Source: a virus (lineage: Duplodnaviria; Heunggongvirae; Uroviricota; Caudoviricetes). Taken from it: a stretch of 19,137 nt of DNA. The DNA is taken from positions 1 through 19,137 of the IMG/VR virus record IMGVR_UViG_2690316028_000003; one strand, written 5' to 3'. Each line of letters begins with the position of its first letter. Position 1 is the first letter of the stretch. Under the pieces are notes generated by a model. It was not told the origin of the DNA and searched no databases. It was given only the letters and a program-made list of their open reading frames with translations. Of the stretch, positions 201-19,137 are shown piece after piece. A program made the translations under genes and the position numbers.

Positions 201-203
201 GGG

Positions 204-485: not shown

Positions 486-487
486 TC

Positions 488-2445: not shown

Positions 2446-2461
2446 GGTAAATTCCTCTTTG

Positions 2462-2776: not shown

Positions 2777-2787
2777 AGGCGATACCG

Positions 2788-4168: not shown

Positions 4169-4170
4169 CG

Positions 4171-4467
4171 TTACTGTCCCTCATCAATATCTGTTTGGTG
4201 GCGAGCAATTGTCTCTGCCATGTAGCGAATAAATTCAGCGGCCCTTTCCTGAAACTCGACGTCATCATCGAATGCTTTGGAAATGGCATTCTTGCTGGCC
4301 CCGCGACGTTGCAACTCGTCAACGCACAACGATTCCAGTTTGCTCTGTGGCAATCCTTTTTCTAGGTCATCAGCCAGTTCAGATTCACGCTCTTCTCTGG
4401 CTATTTGCTGATAATGGCGCGTCCAGTTCTGCGCCTCGATACGGTCTTGAACGAGATATGCAGCCAT
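4171..4467 (-). CDS. gam: host-nuclease (RecBCD) inhibitor Gam, short form
   Basis: From ATG 4467 (AGGAG SD 6 nt upstream): [41 protein letters not shown]...[34 protein letters not shown], near-identical to lambda GamS; ORF track offers an upstream ATG at 4596 (GamL-like extension) that overlaps the preceding gene by 50 nt. Confidence 0.8.
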
Positions 4468-4546
4468 AATAGGCTCCTGAAATTTGGTTGTGCGCTGCCC
4501 GTCTGCGATAGCCGGACGAGTAGGGGTAATGGGTGTTTGGTGTGGT

Positions 4547-4789
4547 TTACTTGCCGAGTGCCTTGTCGATGGCGGAACGAGCCATATCAAACTCATCTGT
4601 TTGACGGTCTGCTACTCTAACTACAGCCTGCAGAGCTTCCAGTAATTCAGGCACTGCAGTAATGAGAGTCTTGTTTTCCTTGCTCGTCATTTCAAGTGGA
4701 TATCCCTTTCCAAAGACTATGTGATGCTTGTTTCCCAAGCCCTCTTCATCCCAAAACCACGGACCGGGAGTTCCTTTAAATTCGCTCAT
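4547..4789 (-). CDS. small protein, Ead/Ea22-like C-terminal-domain family (paralog of 6341..6619)
   Basis: ORF track; motifs [28 protein letters not shown] shared with the 6341..6619 product; AGGAAG SD; family name is from recall. Confidence 0.55.
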
Positions 4790-4792
4790 AAC

Positions 4793-4912
4793 TCACTTCC
4801 TGTGCCACGGAAAACCAATTGCCGCCTTCATATCGTTGTAGGCTGACATCCACATTTCACTATCACCAATAAATCGGGCTATTACTGCTTTGTTCTGTGC
4901 AGCACGAAGCAT
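4793..4912 (-). CDS. possible Kil-like small protein (39 aa)
   Basis: Manual translation MLRAAQNKAVIARFIGDSEMWMSAYNDMKAAIGFPWHRK; sits between cIII and the next gene as kil does in lambda; FIGD motif resembles what I recall of lambda Kil; no clear SD. Confidence 0.25.
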   Translation of the reverse strand: MLRAAQNKAVIARFIGDSEMWMSAYNDMKAAIGFPWHRK

Positions 4913-4926
4913 CTGGTGATTGATGG

Positions 4927-5058
4927 CTATTTCATTGCGCGTAATAAGACCTCAACTCTTTTCCATCCGTCACGTAATTTACGGGTGATTCGTTCAAGTA
5001 AAGATTCATTTAGTTGGAAGGCACCCATGCGAGCGCCTCCCGCGATTGCGTAAATCAT
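4927..5058 (-). CDS. cIII: CIII-like FtsH inhibitor (43 aa)
   Basis: Manual translation MIYAIAGGARMGAFQLNESLLERITRKLRDGWKRVEVLLRAMK; core ESLLERITRKLRDGWKR matches lambda CIII; AAGGAA SD 6 nt upstream; below ORF-track size cutoff. Confidence 0.7.
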   Translation of the reverse strand: MIYAIAGGARMGAFQLNESLLERITRKLRDGWKRVEVLLRAMK

Positions 5059-5082
5059 GGGTGGTTCCTTATGTTGGTTTTA

Positions 5083-6051
5083 TTAGTAGGTTATTTTTGT
5101 TGCGAATACTTCGCCTTTTACGATGGCTGTTATGATATTTTTAGCAACATCTTCTGATGCGCCAACCTTGATAAGGTCAGCAAGTATTTTGTTATTTACT
5201 TCTTTCCGGTGAGCTTTATCCTTTGCTCTACGCTCTTCTTCTTCCTTGATTCTTTTTTCTTCTGCTATTCTGGCTTGCTCTTTTGCTTCAGCCTCGCGCC
5301 TGATTCGTTCAGCCTCCTCCTGTGCTTTTCGGCGTTCTGCTTCAATTGCCGCCTGCTTTTCTCTTTCAGCTCGTTCTGCTGCCTCTTTTGCTTCGCGCTG
5401 TGCTCGTTGCTCGGCTTCAATGCGTTCACGCTCTGCACGTTCCGCTGCGGCCTTAGCTTCTGCTTCTCGCCTTGCTGCTGCTTCAATTTCGGCTTTTGCC
5501 TTTGCTTCGGCTTCTGCTCTGGCTTTCTCTTCAGCTTCTCTTTTTAAGCGTTCTTCATGCTCTCGCTTTTCCTGCTCCGCTTTGAGTCTTGCCTCTTCTC
5601 TTTGGCGGTCAAATTCGCGATCCATCAAAAACGCTATTTCATGGTCAGACTCAATTTGCTTTGCGAGAGCTTCAGCTGCTGCCTTAGCTTCTTCTTCGGC
5701 TTTAATCCGCGCCTGTTCTTCCTCATAATCAGTAAGAGGCTGGCGCGCCTTGGCTTTCAGTTCATCAAGGCGATCGCGCACTGTCTTGCGGTTAGCATCA
5801 ATTAGCTTTGGAATTTCCTTCAGTTCAGCAACAAGGTCTTTGCCAAGACCATCGAGATATGTTTTCGTCTGCGCAACTTTATACGCCAGAGAAGCGATCT
5901 CCTTTCTGCCCTTTGCCGTTGTGATATCAGGCACAAAGGACATAACTTCACGTTCAACCTTTTGAAGGATTTCTTCAATCTGGTCGGCAGACTGAAATAC
6001 AGTCATTGCATTTGCTTTTTCAATAACAACTAAATCTGTTACTTCACTCAT
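5083..6051 (-). CDS. hypothetical protein with about 170-aa E/A/R/K-rich charged helical (SAH/coiled-coil-like) central segment
   Basis: ORF track 322 aa; GGAGGA SD upstream of ATG 6051; central region is REAEEKARAEAEAKAKAEIEAAARREAEAK...; globular N- and C-terminal ends. Confidence 0.65.
   Translation of the reverse strand: MSEVTDLVVIEKANAMTVFQSADQIEEILQKVEREVMSFVPDITTAKGRKEIASLAYKVAQTKTYLDGLGKDLVAELKEIPKLIDANRKTVRDRLDELKAKARQPLTDYEEEQARIKAEEEAKAAAEALAKQIESDHEIAFLMDREFDRQREEARLKAEQEKREHEERLKREAEEKARAEAEAKAKAEIEAAARREAEAKAAAERAERERIEAEQRAQREAKEAAERAEREKQAAIEAERRKAQEEAERIRREAEAKEQARIAEEKRIKEEEERRAKDKAHRKEVNNKILADLIKVGASEDVAKNIITAIVKGEVFATKITY
5230..5700. repeat. low-complexity imperfect short repeats (gcttc/ctgc-rich) encoding the E/A/R/K segment
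   Basis: Visible short-period repetition on the plus strand; produces spurious Cys/Phe/Ser-rich plus-strand ORFs (5209..5547, 5246..5728). Confidence 0.5.
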
Positions 6052-6063
6052 ATATCCTCCATC

Positions 6064-6091
6064 AAAAAATTGCCCTCACACTGGAGGGCAA
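6064..6091 (-). terminator. intrinsic terminator inside the pL operon (tL-like)
   Basis: 8-bp stem ttgccctc/gagggcaa (6070..6077 with 6084..6091), 6-nt loop; on the minus strand it is followed by UUUUUU (plus a-run 6064..6069). Confidence 0.5.
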
Positions 6092-6182
6092 AGAAGATTT
6101 CCAATAATCAGAACAAGTCGGCTCCTGTTTAGTTACGAGCGACATTGCTCACATAGCAGACTCGCAAATCTGCTATAGGTGC

Positions 6183-6344
6183 TTATTCGCATCGCATGAC
6201 AACATCAAATTTTTCGAGATTACTTTGTCGCAACAATCCCTCTTCTACGCGGTCAGCTTTTCTATAATTATCAAATTCGAAATGTTTAATTACTTCTTTC
6301 GTTTCTCGCTCTATAACTTCAACAATGTATTTCTTATTCATCAT
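6183..6344 (-). CDS. small hypothetical protein (53 aa)
   Basis: MMNKKYIVEVIERETKEVIKHFEFDNYRKADRVEEGLLRQSNLEKFDVVMRCE; ATG at 6344 overlaps TGA stop of upstream gene (ATGA coupling); track's longer version starts inside the upstream gene. Confidence 0.45.
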   Translation of the reverse strand: MMNKKYIVEVIERETKEVIKHFEFDNYRKADRVEEGLLRQSNLEKFDVVMRCE

Positions 6345-6619
6345 TCTTCCCCCAGGGCCTTGCTGATGGCTGCCTTGGCTCGTTTGTATTCGGTTAACTC
6401 TCTGCACCCTTCGTCATGCTCGTAAAGGAAGACAAGCTCTTGCAGTGCTTCAAGCAAATCAGGAGCTGCTGCTATCAGTAGCGCATCCTCCCTTTCATTT
6501 CTTGTTGCTGCTTCAATGTATGTGTCACCAATCGTCACACCATGGAACGTAGTCATCATCTCGTTGACGTTTCTAACCGTGTACTTCCATTTACCAGGCG
6601 TACCCTTAAACTCTTTCAT
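6341..6619 (-). CDS. small protein, Ead/Ea22-like C-terminal-domain family (paralog of 4547..4789)
   Basis: From ATG 6619 (GAGG 5 nt upstream): MKEFKGTPGKWKYTVRN...LLIAAAPDLLEALQELV...AKAAISKALGEE; track start at 6625 is GTG. Confidence 0.55.
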   Translation of the reverse strand: MKEFKGTPGKWKYTVRNVNEMMTTFHGVTIGDTYIEAATRNEREDALLIAAAPDLLEALQELVFLYEHDEGCRELTEYKRAKAAISKALGEE

Positions 6620-6649
6620 ATCCACCTCTGTTGTTTATGCCAAAGCAAA

Positions 6650-6817
6650 TTTAACCATCAACAAACTCTTCTGGTAATTTATCAACCAGTTGATGACTTA
6701 TTATCAGCCATTTGCCATCCTTCGTTTCGTATGCATATTTCTGGTCTTTTATCATCATGTGTTCGGCTACTGCCCTAACTGCCTGATCGGTGACATCTTC
6801 TCTCTTTCCTACCCACA
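6650..6817 (-). CDS. small hypothetical ORF (55 aa), in frame with and directly after a 24-codon ORF (6818..6892)
   Basis: Manual translation MWVGKREDVTDQAVRAVAEHMMIKDQKYAYETKDGKWLIISHQLVDKLPEEFVDG; no SD of its own; upstream mini-ORF has strong GAGGA SD and ends with TGA immediately before this ATG. Confidence 0.25.
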
Positions 6818-6949
6818 TTCATTTTTCAGTGTTTAATGTTCCTTGAAAAATACGACCGCTTAATGGGCTTGCGCCCATAGTTTTTACTCTCATGTATCAG
6901 TCCTCAAATAAGTGGTTTGCTGCGAAAATAAATCCGCTTAAGTTACCTG

Positions 6950-7087
6950 TTATTTATCCCACCAAGTTCCGTATCTATCTATCCAGTTACACCAATCATC
7001 GACACTCCATTTTGTTGTGTCGCATTTTGGCAACTGGCATGAATATCTACCTTCTTTGTAAAGTCGGCGTTTGACTTTCTTGAGCAT
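6950..7087 (-). CDS. small Cys/Trp-rich hypothetical protein (45 aa)
   Basis: Manual translation MLKKVKRRLYKEGRYSCQLPKCDTTKWSVDDWCNWIDRYGTWWDK; ATG 8 nt after N stop with GAGG about 6 nt upstream. Confidence 0.3.
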   Translation of the reverse strand: MLKKVKRRLYKEGRYSCQLPKCDTTKWSVDDWCNWIDRYGTWWDK

Positions 7088-7095
7088 GGCTCACC

Positions 7096-7428
7096 TCAAT
7101 CGTAATAAGCTGGAATTGATTTTCCGCGTTGTTTCTGGCGGCCTACACAAGTCACACCCATTTCACTGCGTGGCTTGCTGTACCATGTGCGCTGATTCTT
7201 GCGCTCAATACGTTGCAGGTTGCTTTCAATCTGTTCGTGGTATTCAGCCAGCACCGTAAGGTCTATCGGATTCAGTGCGCTTTCTACTCGTGATTTCGGT
7301 TTGCGATTCAGCGAGAGAATAGGGCGGTTAACTGGTTTTGCGCTTACCCCAACCAACAGGGGATTTGCTGCTTTCCATTGAGCCTGTTTCTCTGCGCGAC
7401 GTTCGCGGCGGCGTGCTTGTGCATCCAT
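7096..7428 (-). CDS. N: antitermination protein N
   Basis: From ATG 7428 (AGGAG SD): MDAQARRRERRAEKQAQWKAANPLLVGVSAKPVNRPILSLNRKPKSRVESALNPIDLTVLAEYHEQIESNLQRIERKNQRTWYSKP..., near-identical to lambda N including the arginine-rich motif; track's upstream ATG at 7479 lacks a good SD. Confidence 0.9.
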   Translation of the reverse strand: MDAQARRRERRAEKQAQWKAANPLLVGVSAKPVNRPILSLNRKPKSRVESALNPIDLTVLAEYHEQIESNLQRIERKNQRTWYSKPRSEMGVTCVGRQKQRGKSIPAYYD

Positions 7429-7600
7429 CTTGATTCTCCTGTCAGTTAGCTTTGGTGGTGTGGTAGGTGGGAGACCCATTTCGACCTGCTTCGGCCGACT
7501 TCAATTCGGCAATAGTTCCGCAGGCCTCGCCGCTTTACGTGCGACATATTCCCATCCATGAACCCTTCACCACACCCCAAAGCCTTCTGCTTTGAATGCT

Positions 7601-7631
7601 GCCCTTCTTCAGGGCTTAATTTTTAAGAGCA
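7601..7631 (-). promoter_or_regulatory. nutL (boxA plus boxB) N-utilisation site
   Basis: Minus-strand reading gives TGCTCTTAA (boxA-like, 7631..7623) followed by GCCCTGAAGAAGGGC (boxB hairpin, 7615..7601), matching lambda nutL boxB exactly. Confidence 0.85.
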
Positions 7632-7670
7632 TCACCTTCATGGTGGTCAGTGCGTCCTGCTGATGGCTAG

Positions 7671-7699
7671 ATAATCACAAATTGTGTTCGTGCTGTCAA
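7671..7699 (-). promoter_or_regulatory. pL-like early-left promoter
   Basis: Minus strand TTGACA (7699..7694), 17-nt spacer, GATTAT (7676..7671); overlaps operator sites; points toward nutL and N. Confidence 0.6.
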
Positions 7700-7734
7700 C
7701 ACGAAATGTGATTGTTTTTATCACAACACGTGTT
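7674..7734. promoter_or_regulatory. OL: three repressor operator sites
   Basis: 15-bp dyads ATCACA-AAT-TGTGTT (7674..7688), AACACG-AAA-TGTGAT (7698..7712), ATCACA-ACA-CGTGTT (7720..7734); centre spacing 24 and 22 bp. Confidence 0.6.
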
Positions 7735-7772
7735 TTCATTGATTTTTAAGGTAATTTAATTTTCTTTGGGCA

Positions 7773-7806
7773 ACAAAAAACCCGCCGAAGCGGGTTTGAT
7801 GTTTTT
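7773..7806. terminator. bidirectional intrinsic terminator downstream of cI
   Basis: aaaaaa-CCCGC-cgaa-GCGGG-tttgatgttttt: GC hairpin with an A-run on one side and T-rich run on the other; 15 nt past the cI stop. Confidence 0.55.
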
Positions 7807-7820
7807 AAGTGGCGGGTATA

Positions 7821-8462
7821 TCAGGAGAATTTCATCATCATCTGCACTGCTACGCCGATTATCTTGCAGTTGCCGTCGATTGGGATCAACGGATAGGCAG
7901 GGTTAAGCCCTTTCAGGTATTTGTTACCGCCATCAATGATTAGCTTCTTGAACGTGGCTTCATTAGCATCTGTCAGCTTCGCAACTACCAGGCTTCCATT
8001 AACGGCTTCCTTTCCAGTGTCGAACAGAACCAGCATACCCTCAGGAACGCTAAGGCCGGTAGGAGCTGTCATTGAGTCGCCCTGAACCCTGAGCCAGAAG
8101 GCGTCACCGACAACGTGACAATCTGATTCATACCACTCATCCACTGCCTGAGGGTTGTACGGCTCTACGGCCTCACTCCATGCACCTGCGCTAACCCAGC
8201 TAATCAACGGAAACTTTTCCCCTGGCTTGTATTGTCCCTGATAGTTGTCGCCAAAAAGCAGTTCTGCCGGAGCGACGCCCAAAGCTTTAGCTATTACCTC
8301 TGCGTCATCAACACTAACGCTTCTGGTTCCTGATTCATAGTTGCCGATCCGAGATTGTGAAGCCCAGCCGCAAAGCTCCGCCAGCGCCTTCTGTGAAAGC
8401 CCTTTATCTTCCCGTAATCGCTTGATACGCGCGGCGATAGTTTCTGTTCTGTTCATGCGCAT
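7821..8462 (-). CDS. cI: CI-type prophage repressor (N-terminal HTH, C-terminal LexA-like S24 autopeptidase)
   Basis: 213 aa; HTH segment LSQKALAELCGWASQSRIGNYESG; probable Ala-Gly cleavage site in SAGAW; catalytic QGDSM serine motif and downstream Lys; ATG sits within about 10 nt of a TATAAA -10-like element, suggesting a near-leaderless pRM transcript. Confidence 0.85.
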   Translation of the reverse strand: MRMNRTETIAARIKRLREDKGLSQKALAELCGWASQSRIGNYESGTRSVSVDDAEVIAKALGVAPAELLFGDNYQGQYKPGEKFPLISWVSAGAWSEAVEPYNPQAVDEWYESDCHVVGDAFWLRVQGDSMTAPTGLSVPEGMLVLFDTGKEAVNGSLVVAKLTDANEATFKKLIIDGGNKYLKGLNPAYPLIPIDGNCKIIGVAVQMMMKFS

Positions 8463-8467
8463 TTTAT

Positions 8468-8529
8468 ATCACATTCCGTGGTTTAAGGCTTTACACGATT
8501 TGTGTTGACTATCAATCACAATATGTGTT
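8468..8529. promoter_or_regulatory. OR: three repressor operator sites
   Basis: ATCACA-TTC-CGTGGT (8468..8482), TACACG-ATT-TGTGTT (8492..8506), ATCACA-ATA-TGTGTT (8515..8529); same half-site consensus as OL. Confidence 0.6.
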
Positions 8530-8533
8530 TAAT
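8505..8533 (+). promoter_or_regulatory. pR-like early-right promoter
   Basis: TTGACT (8505..8510), 17-nt spacer, TTTAAT (8528..8533); overlaps the two cro-proximal operators. Confidence 0.55.
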
Positions 8534-8566
8534 AAAGACTGAGTGAACTAGCTCTTAAGGAAACCT

Positions 8567-8782
8567 ATGAACAACATTGCCAACGAACGGAAAAAGCTTG
8601 GCATCACTCAATCTGCGTTAGCAGGCGCGTGTGGCTGGAACCAGTCCCGCTTAGCTAACTACGAGTCAGGTATCCGGACTCCAGATTTAGAGTCGTGCCG
8701 TCGCCTGGTAAAGGCGCTGAATAAATTGGGGAGCAAGACAACGCTAGATGGCTTGTTCCCGCCGGAACACAAAGCCGCTTAA
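8567..8782 (+). CDS. cro: Cro-like HTH regulator
   Basis: 71 aa; HTH LGITQSALAGACGWNQSRLANYESG; first gene after pR, divergent from cI; AAGGAA SD. Confidence 0.75.
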   Translation: MNNIANERKKLGITQSALAGACGWNQSRLANYESGIRTPDLESCRRLVKALNKLGSKTTLDGLFPPEHKAA

Positions 8783-8790
8783 GACATTCC

Positions 8791-8822
8791 CGCTCTTACA
8801 CATCCCCGCCCTGAAAAAGGGC
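8791..8822 (+). promoter_or_regulatory. nutR (boxA plus boxB)
   Basis: CGCTCTTACACA (boxA, 8791..8802) and GCCCTGAAAAAGGGC (boxB, 8808..8822); the stretch from here to cII appears essentially lambda-identical. Confidence 0.85.
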
Positions 8823-8901
8823 ATCAAATTAAACCACACCTATGGTGTATGCATTTATTTGCATACATTCAATCAATTGTTATCTAAGGAAATACTTACA
8901 T

Positions 8902-9180
8902 ATGGTTCGTGCAAACAAACGCAACGAGGCTCTACGAATCGAGAGTGCGTTGCTTAACAAAATCGCAATGCTTGGAACTGAGAAGACAGCGGAAGCTGTG
9001 GGAGTTGATAAGTCGCAGATCAGCAGGTGGAAGAGGGATTGGATTCCAAAGTTCTCAATGCTGCTTGCTGTTCTTGAATGGGGTGTTGAAGACGAGGAGT
9101 TGGCGGAACTGGCTAAGAAAGTAGCCAGAATGCTGACAAAAGAAAAAGCCCCGAAGAACGGCGAATTCTTCGAGGCCTGA
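8902..9180 (+). CDS. cII: transcriptional activator CII
   Basis: From ATG 8902: MVRANKRNEALRIESALLNKIAMLGTEKTAEAVGVDKSQISRWKRDWIPKFSMLLAVLEWGV..., near-identical to lambda CII over the first roughly 60 residues; track start at 8842 is an upstream in-frame Met. Confidence 0.9.
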   Translation: MVRANKRNEALRIESALLNKIAMLGTEKTAEAVGVDKSQISRWKRDWIPKFSMLLAVLEWGVEDEELAELAKKVARMLTKEKAPKNGEFFEA

Positions 9181-9214
9181 TGTAGAAAGACTGGATCAAT
9201 CCACAGGAGTAATT

Positions 9215-9376
9215 ATGACAAAACGTCGTAAGAAATACCAGGAAAAAGAAGAGATTCGACACCCTGATTCACCTGAGGGATTAGTGGTAGCCGCAGCAAA
9301 TAACAGGGCGTTCGCAGAGCGCCTTGTTGGTGTTTACAGACTAGCCAAAGCAGGAGTGAAACATGGGCGTCGTTAA
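9215..9376 (+). CDS. small basic hypothetical protein (53 aa)
   Basis: Manual translation [53 protein letters not shown]; AGGAG SD 5 nt upstream; overlaps O start by 14 nt. Confidence 0.35.
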   Translation: MTKRRKKYQEKEEIRHPDSPEGLVVAAANNRAFAERLVGVYRLAKAGVKHGRR

Positions 9377-10184
9377 GTTAGCTGATTACAGGCCTCAACT
9401 GGAGGTCGTGGAGCATCGCGTGGCAGATACCGAAGATGGTTTCATGCGCGTTGCTAACGAGATTACCGACAGTCTGCTGATGGCTGATTTAACCGTCCGG
9501 CAGATGAAGGTGATGCTCGCTATCATGCGCAAGACATACGGATTCAATAAGCCGATGGATCGACTCACAAACACGCAGATAGCAGCCATGACAGGTATTC
9601 ATCACACTCATGTTTGCGCTGCCAAGCGCCAGCTTATTGAGCGTAAATTCCTCATTGCTGATGGCGTGAAAATCGGAGTGAACAAGGTGGTTTCTCAGTG
9701 GATTAGCCAGGACAGCTTAACATTAGCTAAAACAGCTAATAAAACATTAGCCAAGTCGGCTAATGGGTATAAGCCAAGTCAGCTAAACACAAAAGACAAT
9801 ATACAAAAGACAATAAATACAAATACCCCCTTACCCCCTAACGGGGGTGGCGATGGGCAGGTTAAACCTGAACGTCGCAAGGCAGAACGAATCGACTACG
9901 AATCCTTCCTGAACGCCTACAACACCGAAGTCGGTGACAGACTGCCACACGCTGTTTCGGTCAACGAGAAACGCAAACGCCGCCTGAAGAAAATCATCCC
10001 GCAACTGAAAACGCCAAACGTGGACGGTTTCAGAGCGTATGTCAGGGCGTTTGTGCATCAGGCCAAGCCGTTTTACTTCGGAGACAACGACACGGGCTGG
10101 ACGGCCGATTTTGATTACCTGTTGAGGGAAGATTCGTTAACGGGAGTACGGGAAGGGAAGTTTGCAGACAGGGGGATTTCATGA
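9363..10184 (+). CDS. O: replication initiator, lambda O-like N-terminal domain
   Basis: N-terminal region ...[37 protein letters not shown]... resembles lambda O (DLTKRQFKVLLAILRKTYGWNKPMDRITDSQL); AGGAG SD; iterons inside the gene. Confidence 0.8.
9703..9825. repeat. origin-like iterons (four copies) plus AT-rich tract inside the O gene
   Basis: TTAGCCAGGACAGCTTAA (9703..9720), TTAGCTAAAACAGCTAA (9723..9739), TTAGCCAAGTCGGCTAA (9747..9763), AAGCCAAGTCAGCTAA (9771..9786), each with internal dyad TTAGC...GCTAA, followed by an A/T-rich run acacaaaagacaatatacaaaagacaataaatacaaata. Confidence 0.55.
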
Positions 10185-11557
10185 GACAGGATATCGAAGC
10201 GAGCGTTATCGGTGGCCTGCTGATTGGTGGATTAACGCCAACCGCCAGCGACGTTCTGGCAACGCTGGAGCCGGAAGCGTTTTCAATTCCGCTCTACCGG
10301 AAAGCCTTCGAGGTTATCCGCAAGCAGGCGAGAAACAGAAACCTAATCGATGCGCTGATGGTTGCCGAGGCGTGCGGAGAGGAGCATTTCACGTCAATCC
10401 TGATGACCAGCAAAAACTGCCCGAGTGCCGCAAACCTGAAGGGATATGCCGGAATGGTCGCGGATAACTATCACCGCCGTCTGGTGCTGGAAATCATGGA
10501 TGAAATGCGTGAACCAATTCAGAGCGGAACCATCGACGCATCGAGTCAGGCGATGGATGAACTTGTAAAGCGTCTCTCAGCCATCAGAAAGCCCCGTAAC
10601 GAGGTTAAACCGATACGGTTAGGGGAAATCATCACTGACTACACTGACACGCTTGACAGGCGTCTGAGGAACGGAGAAGAGTCAGATACCCTGAAGACCG
10701 GAATCGAAGAACTTGACGCCATCACCGGAGGGATGAACGCGGAAGACCTTGTGATAATCGCTGCTCGTCCTGGTATGGGGAAAACCGAACTGGCGCTGAA
10801 GATTGCCGAAGGCGTTGCAAGCCGCGTTATTCCTGGTTCTGACGTCCGGCGCGGGGTATTGATTTTCTCAATGGAAATGAGCGCATTGCAGATTGCAGAG
10901 CGAAGCATTGCCAACGCCGGGAGGATGTCGGTTAGCGTACTGCGAAATCCTGCATCGATGGATGACGAGGGCTGGGCACGTGTTGCTAACGGCATGAGTC
11001 AGCTTGCAGATTTGGATGTATGGGTAGTCGATGCCTCGCGGTTATCGGTCGAAGAAATACGCTCAATCGCAGAACGGCACAAACAGGAAAATCCAAACCT
11101 GTCACTCATCATGGCGGATTATCTTGGCCTGATTGAGAAGCCGAAAGCAGACCGCAACGACCTTGCAATTGCTCACATCTCCGGAAGCCTGAAGGCGATG
11201 GCGAAAGACCTGAAAACGCCTGTTATCTCCCTGAGTCAGCTTTCGCGCGATGTTGAGAAGCGACCAAACAAACGCCCGACAAACGCAGATTTGCGTGATT
11301 CAGGAAGCATTGAACAGGATGCAGACTCAATCATCATGCTCTATCGGGAAGCGGTATATGACGAGAACAGTAGCGCCGCGCCATTTGCTGAAATCATTGT
11401 GACGAAAAACCGTTTTGGCTCGCTTGGTACGGTTTACCAGCGGTTCTGCAACGGACACTTTGTTGCATGTGACCAGGATGAAGCCAGACAGATTTGCACA
11501 ACATCAAATGCACCCGCTGCACGTGGCAGACGATATGCACAAGGGGCTGACGTATGA
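10181..11557 (+). CDS. DnaB-family replicative DNA helicase (P22 gp12-like)
   Basis: 458 aa; Walker [10 protein letters not shown]; DnaB-like N-terminal domain; ATG overlaps O stop (ATGA). Confidence 0.85.
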
Positions 11558-11658
11558 CCATCTACATCACTGAGCTAATAGCAGGGTTATCGTTACTAAT
11601 GGTTCTTACTGTATATATTATTAAGTATATTCTTTATGCGAATAAAAAAACTAATTGA
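11554..11658 (+). CDS. possible small hydrophobic membrane peptide (34 aa)
   Basis: Manual translation [34 protein letters not shown]; ATG overlaps helicase TGA (ATGA); one predicted TM helix with a basic C-terminus; overlaps the start of the next HNH gene in another frame. Confidence 0.2.
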
Positions 11659-12247
11659 TCACGATGAGCTTCTGTCAACATTATCATATGACTCAGAAAC
11701 AGGAATATTTAAATGGCTAAAAACAAATTCAGTAGTAAGAGTAAAAGGTAGTATTGCTGGAGGTGTTAGTGGTGGTTATATATGCATTAGCATAAATAAT
11801 GTTTTGTATTATGCGCATAGACTTGCTTGGTTCTATGTATACAAAAAATGGCCTCCTAAGTTTATTGATCATGTAAATGGGAACAGACTTGACAATAGGA
11901 TTTCAAATCTAAGACTGGCAACAGAAGAGCAGAATGCAAGAAACATTGTAGGGAATAGATTAAACACATCCGGTGCAATTGGAGTGTCTTGGTATAAGCC
12001 AACTGGCAGGTGGAAGTCTTATGTTGGTTATAAAAATAAGACAATATCGTTAGGGTATTTCGATAGCAAAGAAGATGCAGCATTCATAGCAGCACTAGCA
12101 AGAAAGAAACTATATGGAACTTATGCGAGTAAAGCACTTAATTGCGAGCATGAGCTTTTATCTCAATTTAATAATGATGAGGATAAACTTGCGGAATATC
12201 TTAAGGAAAAATCTAAAAGGACTCGAAATCGTGTTAAAAACAGATAA
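11636..12247 (+). CDS. HNH homing endonuclease (HNH_3 plus AP2-like DNA-binding domain)
   Basis: YYAHRLAWFYVYKKWPPKFIDHVNGNRLDNRISNLRLATEEQN (HNH_3) then GVSWYKPTGRWKSYVGYKNKTISLGYFDSKEDAAFIAA (AP2-like); visibly AT-rich compared with the flanking helicase and ninB; no clear SD. Confidence 0.75.
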   Translation: MRIKKLIDHDELLSTLSYDSETGIFKWLKTNSVVRVKGSIAGGVSGGYICISINNVLYYAHRLAWFYVYKKWPPKFIDHVNGNRLDNRISNLRLATEEQNARNIVGNRLNTSGAIGVSWYKPTGRWKSYVGYKNKTISLGYFDSKEDAAFIAALARKKLYGTYASKALNCEHELLSQFNNDEDKLAEYLKEKSKRTRNRVKNR

Positions 12248-12279
12248 AGGCCTGCTGGTAATCGCAGGCCTTTTTATTT
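12248..12279 (+). terminator. intrinsic terminator (tR2-like) between the replication module and nin region
   Basis: Stem aggcctgc/gcaggcct (8 bp), 8-nt loop, then TTTTTATTT. Confidence 0.65.
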
Positions 12280-12295
12280 GGGGGAGAGGGAAGTC

Positions 12296-12736
12296 ATGAA
12301 AAAACTAACCTTTGAAATTCGATCCCCAGCACATCAGCAAAACGCTATTCACGCGGTGCAGCAAATTCTTCCAGACCCAACCAAGCCAATCGTAGTGATC
12401 ATTCATGAGCGCAACCGCAGCTTAGACCAAAACAGGAAGCTATGGGCCTGCTTAGGTGACGTCTCTCGTCAGGTTGAATGGCATGGTCGCTGGCTGGATG
12501 CAGAAAGCTGGAAGTGTGTGTTTACCGCAGCATTAAAGCAGCAGGATGTTGTTCCTAACCTTGCCGGGAATGGCTTTGTGGTAATAGGCCAGTCAACCAG
12601 CAGGATGCGTGTAAGCGAATTTGCGGAGCTATTAGAGCTTATACAGGCATTCGGTACAGAGCGTGGCGTTAAGTGGTCAGACGAAGCGAGACTGGCTCTG
12701 GAGTGGAAAGCGAGATGGGGAGATCGGGCTGCATGA
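12296..12736 (+). CDS. ninB: NinB (Orf-family recombination mediator)
   Basis: From ATG 12296: MKKLTFEIRSPAHQQNAIHAVQQILPDPTKPIVV...ARLALEWKARWGDRAA, near-identical to lambda NinB; track start 12278 is an upstream TTG. Confidence 0.9.
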   Translation: MKKLTFEIRSPAHQQNAIHAVQQILPDPTKPIVVIIHERNRSLDQNRKLWACLGDVSRQVEWHGRWLDAESWKCVFTAALKQQDVVPNLAGNGFVVIGQSTSRMRVSEFAELLELIQAFGTERGVKWSDEARLALEWKARWGDRAA

Positions 12737-13095
12737 CTATCAAATCAAATACGGCAGCGTCAGATAGGTATCGGCTTATTGAGGATTATCTGTATTTAGA
12801 CGGAGATACAGTCAGATACAAAAAGGACTCGCTAAAACACCCCAACCACAGCCACCGGGCCGGAGATGAAATTAAAACATCGATAAATGGATCTGGGTAT
12901 AGACAGGTGTGTTTTGCAGGCATTCAGATGTTTGTTCACGTAGTTGTTTTTGCGCTGCACAACAAAAGAATGCCATTGAAAAATATTGACCATATTAACG
13001 GAAACAGGCTGGACAATTCCCCAAAAAATCTTAGGGAGGCAAGCCGGATAGCAAACAGCCGAAATCAGAAAACTAAGTTCAATAGCCGTTCTTGA
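12733..13095 (+). CDS. HNH endonuclease, HNH_3 domain only; an in-frame TGA separates it from an AP2-like domain that continues to 13260
   Basis: From ATG 12733 (overlaps ninB stop): MTIKSNTAASDRYRLIEDYLYLDGDT...VHVVVFALHNKRMPLKNIDHINGNRLDNSPKNLREASRIANSRNQ; after TGA at 13093..13095 the same frame stays open for 54 codons ([54 protein letters not shown]). Confidence 0.6.
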   Translation: MTIKSNTAASDRYRLIEDYLYLDGDTVRYKKDSLKHPNHSHRAGDEIKTSINGSGYRQVCFAGIQMFVHVVVFALHNKRMPLKNIDHINGNRLDNSPKNLREASRIANSRNQKTKFNSRS

Positions 13096-13256
13096 ATAAA
13101 AAATGTTTTATGGAACAAGCAAAAAAATAAATGGGCCGTTCAAGTGCGCACAGATTTTGGCCGGTTGCATTTTGGGTTCTATGAAGATCTTGAGCTTGCT
13201 GGTTTGGTTGCCAGTGAGGCTATCAACAAATATCACGGACAATATGCGAGGGTTGA

Positions 13257-13787
13257 ATGATTAAGCATAAATCAGAAACACCAAAAGAAGTTAGAGACTG
13301 CTGGCAAACGCCGCTCTGGCTTTTTGATGCACTGGATATTGAGTTTGGATTCTGGCTGGACTCAGCTGCGAGCGACAAAAATGCTCTGTGCGCTCACTGG
13401 CTAACTGAGGCCGACGACGCGCTCAATTCTGAGTGGGTAAGCCACGGTGCAATCTGGAATAACCCACCGTACAGCAATATCAGGCCGTGGGTGGAAAAAG
13501 CCGCTGAGCAGTGCATACAACAGCGACAGACGGTAGTTATGCTTGTGCCAGAGGATATGTCAGTCGGATGGTTCAGCAAGGCTCTGGAGAGTGTCGACGA
13601 AGTTCGCATTATCACTGATGGACGGATTAATTTTATCGAACCATCGACAGGGCTGGAGAAGAAGGGAAACAGCAAAGGCTCAATGCTGCTGATTTGGCGA
13701 CCGTTCATCAGTCCTCGACGAATGTTTACTACCGTATCCAAAGCGGCATTGATGGCGATCGGGCAGGGCGTCAGGAGGGCGGCATGA
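13257..13787 (+). CDS. phage Dam-like DNA N6-adenine methyltransferase
   Basis: 176 aa; [18 protein letters not shown]...[10 protein letters not shown] (NPPY catalytic motif IV); ATG overlaps the upstream stop. Confidence 0.8.
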
Positions 13788-13960
13788 GGCGACAGCGACG
13801 AAGTATCACCGACATCATCTGCGAAAACTGCAAATACCTTCCAACGAAGCGCTCCAGAAATAAATGCAAGCCAATCCCAAAAGAATCTGACGTAAAAACC
13901 TTCAACTACACGGCTCACCTGTGGGATATCCGGTGGCTAAGACATCGTGCGAGGAAATGA
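13784..13960 (+). CDS. ninE: NinE
   Basis: From ATG 13784 (ATGA overlap with the methyltransferase stop): [58 protein letters not shown], near-identical to lambda NinE. Confidence 0.85.
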
Positions 13961-14361
13961 CAATGGATTATTCACAGTTAAGTGATTTTGAAATTAACGT
14001 GGCGGTATTCGAAGCCATTCATAACGGATCACCGGATTACAAAGAAGGTGAGAATGGCGATATGGTGTTTGTCTCATTTGAGGGAGACATTGTAAACGGA
14101 GACGCAGTTGAAGTAGAAGTTGAGCGCGGATCCTTTAACCCATGCGCAAACCCAGCAGACGCATGGCCGATCATCACTGAAAACAAAATTAGCACCATGT
14201 GGATGACAGCGGAAAAAGAATGGTGCGCATGGTCAGGAGGTGATTTAGAGGAAGGTTGTTGGGAATGGGAAAATATTCCTGGCTACTACTTCTGCGGTGA
14301 ATCTCCACTCCGCGCCGCCATGATTGTATTTCTCATGATGCAGGACGCCAATAATGCTTAG
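13957..14361 (+). CDS. ninX: NinX-like protein
   Basis: From ATG 13957 (ATGA overlap with ninE stop); sits between ninE and ninF as ninX does in P22; Cys/Trp-rich C-terminus; family assignment is from recall. Confidence 0.5.
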
Positions 14362-14530
14362 CCCATCCCAATCCCTTCAATACCAGAAAGAAAGCGTCGA
14401 GCGAGCTTTAACATGCGCTAACTGCGGTCAGAAGCTGCATGTGCTGGAAGTTCACGTGTGCTCCGATTGCTGCGCAGAACTGATGAGCGATCCGAATAGC
14501 TCAATGTACGAGGAAGAAGACGATGAGTGA
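14354..14530 (+). CDS. ninF: NinF
   Basis: Manual translation [58 protein letters not shown], near-identical to lambda NinF; below ORF-track size cutoff. Confidence 0.85.
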
Positions 14531-15314
14531 GTTAATGAATGGCAATGCCATCAAAATGACAAGCATTGAAATCGCTGAGTTGGTAGAAAGCCGCCATAGC
14601 AATGTAAAAGTATCCATAGATAGATTGGTGAAACGTGGCGTTATCAAGCCTCCTGCATTGCAGCACACTAACATAATCAATGATTTAGGTGTTATTACCG
14701 GGAAGCGTGATTTCTACGTCTTCGAAGGCGAACAAGGAAAGCGAGACAGCATTATTGTCGTCGCCCAGTTGTCGCCAGAGTTCACCGCTCGCCTTGTTGA
14801 CCGCGGCGCGGAAAACGTCGAGCGCCTGGAGCTGATTACTATGCCTTGGTTCCGGGCTGTGCGAGGAAACCATGAGCAGATGATGATTGATGGGCTATCG
14901 GAGTATGGGAACGTCAATCACTGGTTGGCAAATGGTGGCGGCTGGTTCTTCAATCTCGACTATGACAAAGAAGTGCTGGCTAAGGCTCTGGTTCACAAAG
15001 CAGCTGAGCTGCCACTCGTCATCGAGCTGGTTACCGCTGAGCGTAAAATCGTTATCTGCCACGCTGACTACCCGCATAACGAATATGCGTTCGATAAGCC
15101 CATCCCGAAAGATATGGTCATCTGGAATCGAGAGAGGGTTAGCGACGCACAGGACGGCATTGTATCGACGATAGCCGGTGCTGATCTGTTTATCTTCGGC
15201 CACACCCCAGCGCGCCAGCCCCTGAAGTATGCCAACCAGATGTACATCGACACCGGCGCCGTGTTCTGCGGAAACCTCACGCTGGTAAAGGTGCAAGGCG
15301 GTGAACATGCGTAA
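14523..15314 (+). CDS. chimeric protein: Rha/antirepressor-like N-terminal segment fused to lambda Ser/Thr phosphatase (NinI) C-terminal region lacking motif I
   Basis: Residues from about 93 ([34 protein letters not shown]...FIFGHTP...[21 protein letters not shown]) closely match lambda phosphatase residues about 52..221; N-terminal 90 aa ([25 protein letters not shown]...) carry no GDxHG motif and the GD of GDxxDRG is replaced by AR. Confidence 0.7.
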
Positions 15315-15948
15315 ACCATCCCGCCGTAAGTGCAAAGTATGCGGGGAATACTTCGTGCCGAAATTCCACGATATCCGGATCCGCTGGTGCAGCCCGGAGC
15401 ACGGCGCAATCCTCGCGATGGAAGAACGTCAAAAGGAGAAGGTGAAAGCCGCTGCTAAGCGCATTAAGGAGCAGAAGGAGGCAGAGAAGGCCGGGCGCAA
15501 ACGCCGCAAGGAGAGGCTGGCAGAGCTACGCCCAGCAGGTTACTACAAAGCGCAGGCTCAGCAGGCATTCAACGCCTACATCCGTGCGCGCGATGCTGAT
15601 TTGCCATGCATCAGCTGCGGAGAGACCAACCCGCCAGATCTGCATGGCGGCCAATGGGACTGCGGCCACTTCAAAACAGTAGGTGCTTACCCTGAACTGC
15701 GCTTTGAAGAGCGCAATGCCCATAAGCAGTGCAAATCCTGTAATGCCGGAGCGGGCAAATATACCGCCAAAGAGGCGACGGTAGCGCAGCAATACGAAGC
15801 TGGTCTGGTCGCTCGTTACGGGCAGGAGTACGTGGACTGGCTCAACGGCCCCCACGAAATGACCAACTACCGCCGTGAAGACTTCATTCGGATCCGCGAT
15901 GAATACCGCGCCAAGCTCAAAGCACTGAAACAGTGGGAGGCCGCATGA
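15307..15948 (+). CDS. ninG: NinG/Rap recombination-associated endonuclease
   Basis: [16 protein letters not shown]...WCSPEHG...[27 protein letters not shown]...HKQCKSCN...; matches lambda NinG motifs ([35 protein letters not shown]); track start 15301 is GTG. Confidence 0.85.
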
Positions 15949-16061
15949 ACCAAGCCGATTTCCTCCGTTACCAGGCAGAAAGCGTTAAGCGCGCCAGCAT
16001 GCCGCCAATAGTAAAGCACAGCCAGACCAAAACCCACCAGCCACAGAAGGAAGCCGCATAA
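15945..16061 (+). CDS. small hypothetical protein (38 aa), NinY/NinH-position ORF
   Basis: Manual translation [38 protein letters not shown]; ATG overlaps ninG stop (ATGA) and its stop overlaps the Q start codon. Confidence 0.3.
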   Translation: MNQADFLRYQAESVKRASMPPIVKHSQTKTHQPQKEAA

Positions 16062-16870
16062 TGAACCTCGAATCAATCGCTAAATACTTTGCGCCTAAAT
16101 CACCGATGTTCAGTGACTCTCCTCGCGCAACCGCATCAGACAGTCTCACCGGCACTGACGTTATGGCGGCGCTTGGCCTTGCTGGCCACAAGTGCGGGTT
16201 TGGTTTCGATCTTTACCTCTCGAAAATCGGCATTAGCAGCCCAGATATAGCACTGGAGAGACTCTATGAGCAGGCACGTAAGTTATCAGGTAAATTCAGA
16301 GCACTGTCTGAACTCGATGAATCAGCTCGGTCAGGCGTGCTTAAGGTTCTCTGCGCTTTTGCATACCAGGATTATTCAAGAAGTGCTGCCAGCACTCGAA
16401 AATGTGATTGCTGTGATGGTGGCGGATTTACAGAGGCGCAAGTGTTTACCAACAAGGTCTCATACCCATGGGGGAAACCGCCTTACTGGTCGAAAATGTC
16501 GCGTGCCGTTCGCCCAAGCGACTGGGAGAGCTGGACACAGGCGCGTGAGGTGGTGCGAGTTAAGTGCAAGCCGTGTAACGGAAAAGGCGTTATCAGCAAT
16601 TCGTGTCGCTGCCATGGCAAAGGTAAGGTGCTGGACAAGGCAGAAAGCGATCGCCAGGGCGTTCCAGTAATGAAAGCCTGCGACCGCTGCGGTGGTAGAG
16701 GTTACGCCAGGCTTAAGTTCTCAACGGTAATTGAGGGCGTTAATACTGTTGCGGAGATAAAGAAAACGGCGGCATATGAGCAACTTCAGCCGCTATTTGA
16801 GGAGTTGGTCGCCGAATGCCATAAACAGGAGTCTATGGCTGATTCCATTCTCTCAAAAGTAACGAGATGA
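16061..16870 (+). CDS. Q: late-gene antiterminator Q
   Basis: 269 aa with three Cys pairs (CKPCNGKG, CRCHGKGKV, CDRCGGRGY); last gene of the nin region, immediately upstream of a promoter/terminator-rich gap and the lysis cassette. Confidence 0.7.
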   Translation: MNLESIAKYFAPKSPMFSDSPRATASDSLTGTDVMAALGLAGHKCGFGFDLYLSKIGISSPDIALERLYEQARKLSGKFRALSELDESARSGVLKVLCAFAYQDYSRSAASTRKCDCCDGGGFTEAQVFTNKVSYPWGKPPYWSKMSRAVRPSDWESWTQAREVVRVKCKPCNGKGVISNSCRCHGKGKVLDKAESDRQGVPVMKACDRCGGRGYARLKFSTVIEGVNTVAEIKKTAAYEQLQPLFEELVAECHKQESMADSILSKVTR

Positions 16871-16912
16871 AAATAATTTTCCCTAATGTTGAAAATATAT
16901 AGGAAATAGGTA

Positions 16913-16941
16913 TTGCATTTCGCGGAAAAACTGGATAGATT
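16913..16941 (+). promoter_or_regulatory. candidate late promoter PR' (qut region)
   Basis: TTGCAT (16913..16918), 17-nt spacer, TAGATT (16936..16941), about 45 nt past Q stop and about 50 nt before the first terminator. Confidence 0.3.
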
Positions 16942-16990
16942 CATCTCTAACGCTGGGAATCCGTTCAGTCGTTCCGAAGCCAAAAAAATT

Positions 16991-17027
16991 CAAGCCCGAG
17001 GTTAACGCCTTGGGCTTTTTTTATTTC
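16991..17027 (+). terminator. intrinsic terminator (tR'-like)
   Basis: caagcccgagg-ttaacg-ccttgggctt followed by TTTTTTTATTT; an A-run upstream makes it potentially bidirectional. Confidence 0.6.
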
Positions 17028-17283
17028 TTTGTGGCCTAAATCGCTTCGAGCCAAAAAAACGCGGAGAACGACATCACCCCTCTCCGCAATAACGACTCAA
17101 TCTCATACCCGCTTGTCTTTCTTTTATCCACAAATAGGTAAAGCCATAACTTAGTGGAAATGGTAACAGCTAAAAACTATTTGAAAAGCTAATTATTTTT
17201 TGCATCAACTGGCTATTCTTAAGGATTGTTTAATTTTTTGCTTTCCTAGCGAGAAAGAAGCTCCGGAAACTATCAATCAATAC

Positions 17284-17311
17284 AAGGCTGCCGTTCGGCG
17301 GCCTTTTTTAT
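17284..17311 (+). terminator. second intrinsic terminator just upstream of the holin gene
   Basis: GC-rich hairpin ggctgccg-ttcg-gcggcc followed by TTTTTTATT. Confidence 0.55.
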
Positions 17312-17348
17312 TCCTAGCAACAGCACTCGCACAAAGCGAGGTGAGAGT

Positions 17349-17573
17349 ATGTATCGCATGGACAAACTAACCACTGGTGCTGCCTATGGCGCTTCAGCCG
17401 GGAGCATCCTAAACGGCATGTTGAATGCCTACAGCCCCGAGCAGTGGAACGCTATCGGCGTGCTGGTGGGTATCATCATTGCCGTAATGACGTATCTGAC
17501 AAATCTCTATTTCAAAATCCGCGAAGACAACCGCCGCAGCAGGAGCCGAGATGAACCCAACGTTGAGGAATAA
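17349..17573 (+). CDS. S: S21-type pinholin with dual-start motif (class II holin/antiholin)
   Basis: [65 protein letters not shown]...; two TMDs (Gly/Ala-rich TMD1), [12 protein letters not shown] matches phage 21 S as I recall it; Met1 and Met4 starts; GAGGTGAG SD. Confidence 0.8.
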
Positions 17574-18045
17574 GCTGGTGGGTGCCATTGTTGGCGGATC
17601 AGGGGCAATCACTATTGCTGCAGTAATGCTGGGCAATGCGGATGGACTCGAAGGTCGGCGTTATTACGCCTATCAGGATGTGGTCGGCGTCTGGACCGTT
17701 TGCGATGGGCACACTGGTACCGACATTCGCCGCGGTCACCGATATACCGACAAAGAGTGTGACAACCTGCTTAAGGCAGATCTGCGAAAGGTGGCAAGCG
17801 CCATCGACCCGCTGATCAAGGTTCGCATCCCTGAGCCAACCCGCGCCGCGCTTTACTCCTTCACCTATAACGTTGGCTCTGGTGCTTTTGCCAGCTCGAC
17901 GCTGCTGAAGAAGCTGAACTCCGGTGATGTTCCGGGTGCGTGTAAAGAACTGCAGCGCTGGACTTATGCTGGTGGCAAGCAGTGGAAGGGGCTGATCACC
18001 CGGCGCGAGATTGAGCGTGAAGTCTGCGAGTGGGGCCAGAAATGA
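17551..18045 (+). CDS. R: SAR endolysin (GH24 T4-lysozyme-type, phage 21 R-like)
   Basis: N-terminal signal-anchor-release domain [20 protein letters not shown]; catalytic E-x8-D-x5-T in [24 protein letters not shown]; overlaps holin 3' end. Confidence 0.85.
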
Positions 18046-18500
18046 GCCGATTAACCGCAATCATCTGCGCTGTCGTTATCTGCCTGCTGGTTTCCATGGC
18101 CTGGGCCATTAACCACTACCGCGACAACGCCATCACTTACAGAGACCAGCGCGATAAGGCCACTGAGAAACTCCTCCTGGCGACCGCCACCATTAAAGAC
18201 ATGCAGACCCGCCAGCGTGATGTCGCTGCACTGGATGCCAAATACACCGGAGAACTGGCTGATGCGAAAGAAACCATTGAGCGTCTGCATAGCGATGTCA
18301 TTGCTGGTCGTAAGCGCCTGCAAGTCGCCGCCACCTGTGCAAAGTCAACGACCGGAGCCGGCGGCATGGGCGATGGAGAAAGCCCAGGACTTACAGCAGA
18401 TGCTGAACTCAATTATTACCGTCTCCGAAGTGGAATCGACAAGATAACCGCGCAGGTTAACTACCTGCAGGAGTACATCAGGACTCAGTGCCTGAAATAA
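18042..18500 (+). CDS. Rz: i-spanin Rz
   Basis: From ATG 18042 (ATGA overlap with endolysin stop): [23 protein letters not shown]... N-terminal TMD then coiled-coil periplasmic domain; track start 18030 is GTG. Confidence 0.75.
18262..18447 (+). CDS. Rz1: o-spanin Rz1 lipoprotein, embedded in the +1 frame of Rz
   Basis: [36 protein letters not shown]...; lipobox LVVSAC with proline-rich mature region; lies wholly within Rz. Confidence 0.7.
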
Positions 18501-18530
18501 TTTTTTTGCAAATCACAAAGTCCATTTAAT

Positions 18531-18557
18531 GAGCCTCGCGATGCGGGGCTTTTTATT
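18531..18557 (+). terminator. intrinsic terminator after the lysis cassette
   Basis: agcctcgc-gat-gcggggct hairpin (one G-U pair) followed by TTTTTATT. Confidence 0.6.
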
Positions 18558-18578
18558 CCCAACTCTATAGGTAATTTT

Positions 18579-19049
18579 ATGACCCAGCATATTGGCGTAA
18601 AACTGATTAACGCCTTTCCGATGACGAGACAGGCATATAACGATTTTCGTGGCTGGCAGCTTCCTGCCGGAGAAAACGGCGAGGATGAAGGCTATCTGGT
18701 TGAATATCTTGATGGCGGAAAACCTAACACCGATCGCTTTGATGGCTACGTTAGCTGGAGTCCAAAAGAAGTATTCGAAAAGGCTTATCGTCCGGTATCA
18801 GGGCTAAGTTTCGGCCTTGCCATTGAAGCGCTCAAGTTGGGGAATAAAGTTGCCCGTGCTGGCTGGAATGGTAAGGGGATGTATCTGTTCATTATCCAGC
18901 AGAATGCTTGGGGGTTTGAGTGTGACCTGGACGGAGTTAATGGCCTTGTGACGCTGCCATGCATTTGCATGAAGACAGCGGACGATAAATTAGTACCGTG
19001 GCTGGCTAGTCAGACTGATGTTCTAGCAGAAGACTGGCAAATCATTTAA
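18579..19049 (+). CDS. hypothetical late accessory protein with DUF2829-like (Tad2-like) C-terminal domain
   Basis: 156 aa; C-terminal GLSFGLAIEALKLGNKVARAGWNGKGMYLFII...KTADDKLVPWLASQTDVLAEDWQII resembles DUF2829 as I recall it; N-terminal about 70 aa unassigned; follows a terminator with weak SD. Confidence 0.55.
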   Translation: MTQHIGVKLINAFPMTRQAYNDFRGWQLPAGENGEDEGYLVEYLDGGKPNTDRFDGYVSWSPKEVFEKAYRPVSGLSFGLAIEALKLGNKVARAGWNGKGMYLFIIQQNAWGFECDLDGVNGLVTLPCICMKTADDKLVPWLASQTDVLAEDWQII

Positions 19050-19137
19050 CCATGTAGGCATTACAAAGCCCATCTACGGGTGGGCTTGATAATGGATATC
19101 CCCCTGAGCGGATAAATCAAAAATAACCCCTGCAACG

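Follow-up and report, generated by a model that had tools for sequence, protein, structure and literature searches.

The lysis pathway of phage 21 has been described (PMC6139136, PMC9636201, and PMC7312051), and work on this phage has shown that its pinholin forms small holes (~2 nm) that depolarize the membrane and do not release cytoplasmic endolysin. The same type of cassette is found in DLP12 of K-12 as essD-rrrD-rzpD-rzoD. It comprises a dual-start holin gene (M-x-x-M with one extra basic residue) encoding a holin with two transmembrane domains (TMDs), of which TMD1 is weak; a GH24 endolysin with a Gly/Ala-rich anchor, an E-x8-D-x5-T triad, and four conserved Cys; and an Rz1 gene embedded in the +1 frame of Rz. 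Phage λ (S105/S107-R-Rz-Rz1) resembles the cassette analyzed here in gene order, in control by Q/pR', in the dual start of its holin gene, in its embedded Rz1, and in the family of its inner-membrane spanin subunit (i-spanin), but its S protein is a class I holin with three TMDs, which forms micron-scale holes, and its R protein is a cytoplasmic transglycosylase without an anchor. Kongari et al. (2018) placed the i-spanin of φ80 in the λ Rz family and its outer-membrane subunit (o-spanin) in the HK97 family, together with the embedded o-spanins of HK97, HK75, CUS-3, and P22, whereas the phage 21 o-spanin belongs to the λ family. The record of φ80 (Lula; JX871397 / NC_021190) annotates genes 18 (holin), 19 (lysozyme, “LysN”), Rz, and Rz1, as well as pR', a Q-binding site, and three terminators. 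Here, we compared these systems with the lysis cassette of a stretch of Caudoviricetes DNA (IMG/VR record IMGVR_UViG_2690316028_000003, positions 1–19,137). The whole 19,137-nt stretch is referred to as the window, all positions refer to it, and the cassette lies at 17349–18500 on the + strand. Four intact + strand open reading frames (ORFs) occupied this interval in the lambdoid order S-R-Rz/Rz1, as follows.

17349–17573, + strand: S, a class II holin of the S21 family and putative pinholin, 74 aa (PF04971; identity with φ80 gp18)
17551–18045, + strand: R, a GH24 lysozyme with an N-terminal domain of the signal-anchor-release (SAR) type, 164 aa (PF00959; PDB 3HDE and 4ZPU; φ80 gp19)
18042–18500, + strand: Rz, i-spanin, 152 aa (PF03245, 1.8e-37; PHROG 13, 1.1e-70)
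18262–18447, + strand: Rz1, o-spanin lipoprotein precursor, 61 aa (PF06085, 2e-20; PHROG 3198, 1.5e-27)

The bounds of the cassette, 17349 and 18500, coincided exactly with the start of S and the stop of Rz; S and R overlapped by 23 nt, and the Rz ATG overlapped the R stop codon as ATGA. All four proteins matched the expected Pfam families well above the curated cut-offs, much more strongly than chance would allow, and PHROG assigned each of them to a lysis family. An NCBIfam scan of these proteins and of a Tad2-like protein encoded downstream gave only sub-threshold lysozyme-domain matches (BgtA, 114 bits against a cut-off of 315). A sequence-only reading of the window had described a complete pinholin, SAR endolysin, and embedded spanin cassette in this interval, and all four genes were found where it had placed them. 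Taken together, the family assignments, the solved structure of the R21 relative, the φ80 annotation, and the motif checks support the view that this is a known kind of cassette, in which a predicted dual-start S21-family holin is combined with a GH24 endolysin of the SAR type and a two-component spanin of embedded architecture.

The closest relative of the cassette was φ80. In a megablast search against annotated phages, φ80 was the best match (98.3% over 16900–18554), and a second φ80 alignment covered 15965–18554 at 98.8%, stopping at 18554, at a terminator. Only three DNA mismatches to φ80 occurred in 16061–18136. S and R were 100% identical to gp18 and gp19 of φ80, respectively, and Rz and Rz1 shared 93.4% and 95.1% identity with their φ80 counterparts. 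The gene order, gene lengths, and overlaps were also those of φ80, as were Q, pR', and the three terminators. The gene structure, protein families, motifs, regulatory signals, and identity to φ80 were all directly observed in the window. An exact-sequence look-up returned at least 1000 contigs for S, under the name “class II holin family protein”, and at least 1000 for R, under the name “lysozyme”. The earlier judgment that the cassette is not novel was therefore borne out, and any novelty in S or R would be that of φ80 rather than of the window, because both proteins are identical to those of this long-studied phage. In other words, the cassette is an already known and ordinary one, and the sequence-only reading of it was confirmed as real and correct. 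We estimate a probability of about 90% that the cassette belongs to a mosaic lambdoid Escherichia coli phage or prophage with a φ80 Q-pR'-S-R-Rz/Rz1 module and that its lysis follows the phage 21-like sequence proposed below. Its significance goes little beyond annotation: the contig carries an intact φ80 lysis module in a mosaic lambdoid early region.

The same reading had named the phage 21-type lysis strategy. For S and R, this held at the level of families and motifs; however, the nearest relative was φ80, and the proteins of the phage 21 type were only 38–64% identical to those of the window. Alignment with the DLP12 copies gave 49% identity for S (EssD), 64% for R (RrrD; 63% for R21, 3HDE), 52% for Rz, and 38% for Rz1 (RzoD). 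All features listed above for the phage 21 type, including the Pfam families, were shared with the window, with the first of the two TMDs of S being putative, but S and R overlap by 1 nt in DLP12 compared with 23 nt in the window, TMD1 of the 21-type holin is three residues longer than that of S, and Rz1 of the phage 21 type belongs to another o-spanin family and has a periplasmic Cys that the window Rz1 lacks. By contrast with λ, neither S nor R of the window is homologous to its λ counterpart.

S matched PF04971 (“P21 holin S”) over profile positions 1–62 of 64 (E-value 5.4e-25, 87.6 bits against a cut-off of 26) and the PHROG 20 holin family (4e-27). The gene has two putative start codons, Met1 (17349) and Met4 (17358), which give the N-terminus M1-Y2-R3-M4 with the basic residue R3, and a Shine-Dalgarno (SD) sequence, GAGG, lies at 17338–17341, 7 nt upstream of Met1. 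This dual-start motif, pointed out in the sequence-only reading, was invariant as MYRM in 14 S homologues of one cluster, in which the neighboring residues varied; these came from six or more genera, among them Enterobacter, Klebsiella, Lelliottia, Yokenella, and Raoultella. More broadly, M-x-x-M and the position of the SD sequence were common to the φ80-type, 21-type (MKSM), and Stx-phage (2851: MYQM) S genes. TMD2 (residues 35–53) reached a peak Kyte–Doolittle hydropathy (KD) of 2.13, and in a pairwise alignment its G37xxxG41xxxA45 matched G40xxxS44xxxG48 of the 21-type holin. The TMD1 stretch (residues 7–30) was uncharged, consisted of Gly, Ala, Ser, or Thr at 58% of positions, and had a mean KD of 0.42, below the transmembrane threshold; TMD1 of DLP12 EssD was likewise weak (mean KD 0.70). 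A tblastn search with S at E ≤ 1e-5 returned φ80 and Klebsiella phages only, a small number that is explained by the short, low-complexity query, and at E ≤ 1 the 21-type and Stx-phage holins were also recovered.

R, which is preceded by an SD sequence (AGGAG) at 17541–17545, matched the PF00959 phage lysozyme family (1.5e-43) and, over its full length, the structures of phage 21 R (PDB 3HDE, 1.5e-63, 63% identity) and DLP12 RrrD (4ZPU, 2e-64). These alignments took in the N-terminal anchor, the catalytic triad, and all four Cys. Both features that had been noted in R earlier, the Gly/Ala-rich N-terminal domain and the E-x8-D-x5-T triad, were recovered. A regular-expression search found the triad as E34-x8-D43-x5-T49, aligned to E35/D44/T50 of phage 21 R; residues 9–30 formed an uncharged stretch with 55% Gly/Ala/Ser/Thr (62% in the equivalent R21 anchor) and a peak KD of 2.09, preceded by the basic residues R6 and K8. 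Cys occurred only at positions 51, 70, 131, and 159, matching 52, 71, 132, and 160 of R21, with none in the anchor. An anchor free of Cys distinguishes the R21-type control by refolding from the disulfide caging of the P1 Lyz type, so R fits the former rather than the latter. In the one published experiment found that bears on the cassette, expression of φ80 gene 19 (“LysN”, identical to R) alone from pBAD is reported to have lowered the culture turbidity of five E. coli strains, some of which lacked φ80, as is expected of an exported endolysin, although the authors framed the result differently. Separately, positions 17379–17434, inside S, were identical to the 56-nt RacR target upstream of φ80 gene 19 (lysN) (Tang et al. 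2019). If gene 18 did contain an internal, RacR-responsive promoter, R could be transcribed without S in a host carrying Rac.

From these features and by analogy with phage 21 and λ, the following course of lysis can be proposed. RNA polymerase modified by Q would start from pR' and read through two terminators into S. S would be translated from both Met1 and Met4 and would accumulate in the inner membrane, the 71-aa form presumably acting as the holin and the 74-aa form, with Arg3, as an antiholin that delays the release of the weakly hydrophobic TMD1. Meanwhile, R would be exported by the Sec system and, uncleaved, held inactive on the inner membrane by its Gly/Ala-rich N-terminal anchor. 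On triggering, S would form small holes through TMD2 and depolarize the membrane, upon which the anchor of R would leave the bilayer and the enzyme would refold, with E34, D43, and T49 becoming active and the peptidoglycan being cut. Finally, a complex of Rz in the inner membrane and Rz1, as a lipoprotein of the outer membrane, would remove the outer membrane, probably by fusing both membranes. The pinhole size, the antiholin role, release dependent on the proton motive force, and membrane fusion are carried over here from work on phage 21 and λ, and “pinholin” and “SAR” are accordingly used as functional labels drawn from homology. In particular, the expectation that S forms pinholes rather than large holes comes from the SAR type of its partner and from a sequence identity of 49% with the 21-type holin.

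Several observations weigh against this scheme. TMD1 of S was not called by the hydropathy threshold. Compared with the 21-type holin, this domain has three residues fewer and, with two Asn, is the more polar, and the C-terminal tail of S is longer and has an acidic end. When a structure resembling the λ sdi was sought by folding the RNA of 17312–17400, which spans the S leader and both starts, the minimum free energy (−22.8 kcal/mol, z = 0.03) was no better than that of shuffled sequences; by eye, a hairpin of 5 bp (CUCGC/GCGAG) can be seen next to the SD sequence of S, without statistical support. No experimental or functional study of φ80 S was found in the literature. In R, Gly28-Asn29-Ala30 immediately before Asp31 could, as judged by eye, be a signal-peptidase site. 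Regarding TMD1, the threshold found a single TMD in S and in EssD alike, as would be expected if TMD1 is releasable, and this pattern need not count against the reading; the TMD check proposed with the earlier reading succeeded for TMD2, but for TMD1 gave the same sub-threshold result as in EssD. The remaining differences would also suit a class II holin of the canonical kind, with large, non-specific holes and a SAR endolysin as an incidental partner, since S shares only 49% identity with the 21-type holin, and phages in which a SAR endolysin is paired with a holin that is not a pinholin are reported (phage N4, according to the title of PMC12642591). We consider this very unlikely, because S belongs to the P21 holin S family over its full length, the small-residue face of its TMD2 aligns with that of the 21-type holin, its dual start is conserved, and its partner is an endolysin of the R21 type.

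Similarly, R might carry a cleavable signal peptide and be secreted, becoming periplasmic after processing instead of being released from a signal anchor. The Gly-Asn-Ala sequence fits the small-residue −3/−1 rule, and a secreted enzyme would likewise cause lysis when φ80 gene 19 is expressed alone. However, the hydrophobic stretch of R, at ~20 residues, is longer than typical signal-peptide cores and Gly/Ala-rich like that of R21, and the N-terminus aligns with R21, whose anchor is reported to be retained, with the enzyme refolding after release. A constitutively active periplasmic lysozyme would also defeat holin timing, against which the tightly coupled S gene argues, making cleavage of R extremely improbable. 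Full-length family membership and the alignments with the phage 21 proteins thus appear to counter both alternatives, and both are disfavored. It is also quite unlikely that the φ80-type S represents a functionally distinct S21 subtype with triggering and antiholin behavior unlike that of phage 21 and that, given a promoter inside gene 18, R is expressed and lyses the cell without the holin clock; this idea was based on the TMD1 that is shorter by three residues and contains Asn, the longer tail with its acidic tip, and the 23-nt overlap with R. The phage 21-like course, with S as a pinholin and R as a tethered endolysin, is therefore retained as the preferred reading.

The spanin departs from the phage 21 type in its outer-membrane subunit. 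Rz has an N-terminal TMD at residues 4–24 (peak KD 2.63), and its periplasmic Cys99 and Cys150 correspond to the C99 and C152 positions of λ Rz. Rz1 has an SD sequence (GGAG) at 18250–18253 and lies wholly within Rz in the +1 frame (offset 220, mod 3 = 1), as the sequence-only reading had stated. That reading had also named the lipobox LVVSAC and proposed a lipoprotein check: the sequence LLVVSAC, with Cys20, three Lys/Arg in the first seven residues, and Lys at +2, agreed with the PROSITE PS51257-type rule. Under the +2 sorting rule, Lys rather than Asp at this position means that there is no signal for inner-membrane retention. Mature Rz1 contains no Cys beyond the lipidated Cys20. Rz1 extends from 0.48 L to 0.88 L of Rz, and embedded spanins typically start at 0.4–0.5 L and end at 0.9–1 L (Kongari et al. 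2018); the start is thus within the typical range, and the end falls just short of it. One homotypic intermolecular disulfide, at the position of λ Rz C152 or Rz1 C29, suffices for function (Kongari et al.; Berry et al.), and the at least one periplasmic Cys that this calls for is provided in the window by Rz Cys99/Cys150.

Rz1 did not group with the λ/phage 21 o-spanins (λ, 21, and DLP12), which are Pro-rich and have Cys29: it shared 38% identity with DLP12 RzoD, had no equivalent of Cys29, and fell in the same 90% identity cluster as the Rz1 proteins of HK75 and CUS-3. Its sequence thus assigns it to the HK97 o-spanin family and not to the λ/21 family, and it differs from the HK97-family o-spanins by point substitutions only, two of them in the lipobox region. 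As in φ80, it is paired with an Rz of the λ family. The spanin is therefore not phage 21-type in all its parts, and one detail of the earlier reading is corrected, in that the outer-membrane subunit is of the HK97 type. The exact Rz1 sequence is on record from two contigs. Selection in both frames of the Rz/Rz1 overlap was also considered; five of the six substitutions were synonymous in one frame, but ~4/6 would be expected from the geometry alone, and no such claim is made for this reason.

Comparison of the DNA located a mosaic joint inside Rz. Phage Louie matched 18111–19094 at 99%, and 15 mismatches to φ80 clustered at 18137–18212 agreed with Louie, which places the exchange point at ~18111–18137, in the conserved part of Rz. 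As judged from these alignments, Rz is a hybrid, of the φ80 type up to ~18111–18137 and of the Louie/HK type thereafter, and provides an example of the usual lambdoid module exchange with its joint in the conserved part of the gene. Nine substitutions at 18308–18488 were private to the window with respect to both φ80 and Louie, and two of these change the lipobox from LLAVSGC in φ80 to LLVVSAC, both of which are valid lipoboxes. The look-up of exact sequences found this hybrid Rz (protein KUH06521.1) in one E. coli contig only.

The regulatory elements of the φ80 module were also present, as follows.

16061–16870, + strand: late antiterminator Q, φ80 gp17 type (Pfam Antiterm, 1.3e-34; PHROG 127)
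16913–16941, + strand: late promoter pR' (coordinates transferred from the φ80 annotation)
16992–17024, + strand: intrinsic terminator 1, downstream of pR', with an 11-bp stem and T-run, coinciding with an annotated φ80 terminator
17284–17311, + strand: intrinsic terminator 2, tR'-like, ~40 nt upstream of S, with a 9-bp stem and T-run, annotated in φ80
18531–18555, + strand: intrinsic terminator closing the lysis cassette, with a 9-bp stem and T-run, annotated in φ80

The Q gene showed no DNA mismatches to φ80, in whose record it is labeled “late transcription antitermination protein”, and the region between Q and S, which holds the promoter and terminators, was identical to φ80 at 499 of 501 positions. 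The pR' elements are a −35 TTGCAT at 16913–16918, a Q-binding element at 16920–16926, and a −10 TAGATT at 16936–16941. A simple promoter scan (threshold 9) did not list pR', and the call rests on the annotated φ80 record because the site matches only 8 of 12 consensus positions. In contrast, a terminator scan of the window independently re-found all three annotated φ80 terminators, at 16992–17017, 17284–17305, and 18531–18551. In the ~260 nt between the two terminators that follow pR' (17025–17283), neither a noteworthy ORF nor a tRNA was present, and no Rfam match exceeded the gathering score; related Klebsiella phages have four tRNA genes between Q and S. An Rfam scan of 16800–19137 gave five matches, all far below the gathering scores and treated as chance, and a tRNA search of the whole window found none.

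Upstream of the cassette, the genes follow the order HNH, gp157, RecT, Gam, N, cI-like repressor, Cro, CII, O, and DnaB-like helicase, and then NinB, Dam, NinX, phosphatase, NinG, and Q, which is followed by the lysis genes. The window is thus a lambdoid early region followed by lysis genes. It stops at 19137, 637 bp past Rz, without any visible gene for a terminase or a structural protein. The sequence-only reading had taken the cassette to confirm that the late region is intact; this went too far, since the intactness of the late region is beyond judgment in a window that ends so soon after Rz and lacks such genes.

Directly after the lysis terminator, at 18579–19049 on the + strand, lies a gene for a 156-aa protein with a C-terminal Tad2-like/DUF2829 domain, which matched Pfam PF11195 (9e-27) and, among PDB entries, SPO1 Gp34.65/Tad2 (4e-17) and AcrIIA7 (7e-15). 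Its first ~74 residues have no assigned function (PHROG 872). The gene stands in the position of rha, which follows the terminator in φ80, and it is 99% identical to a Louie gene annotated as “anti-CRISPR protein”; its product is probably an anti-defense moron. A 322-aa ORF at 5083–6051 (− strand) and several smaller leftward ORFs, as well as 204–1583 (− strand), matched no Pfam family at E ≤ 0.001. Three ORFs encode HNH_3 endonucleases, at 1580–2284 (− strand), 11636–12247 (+ strand), and 12673–13095 (+ strand), one of them fused to an AP2 domain, and their scattered distribution in the early region suggests homing-endonuclease insertions.

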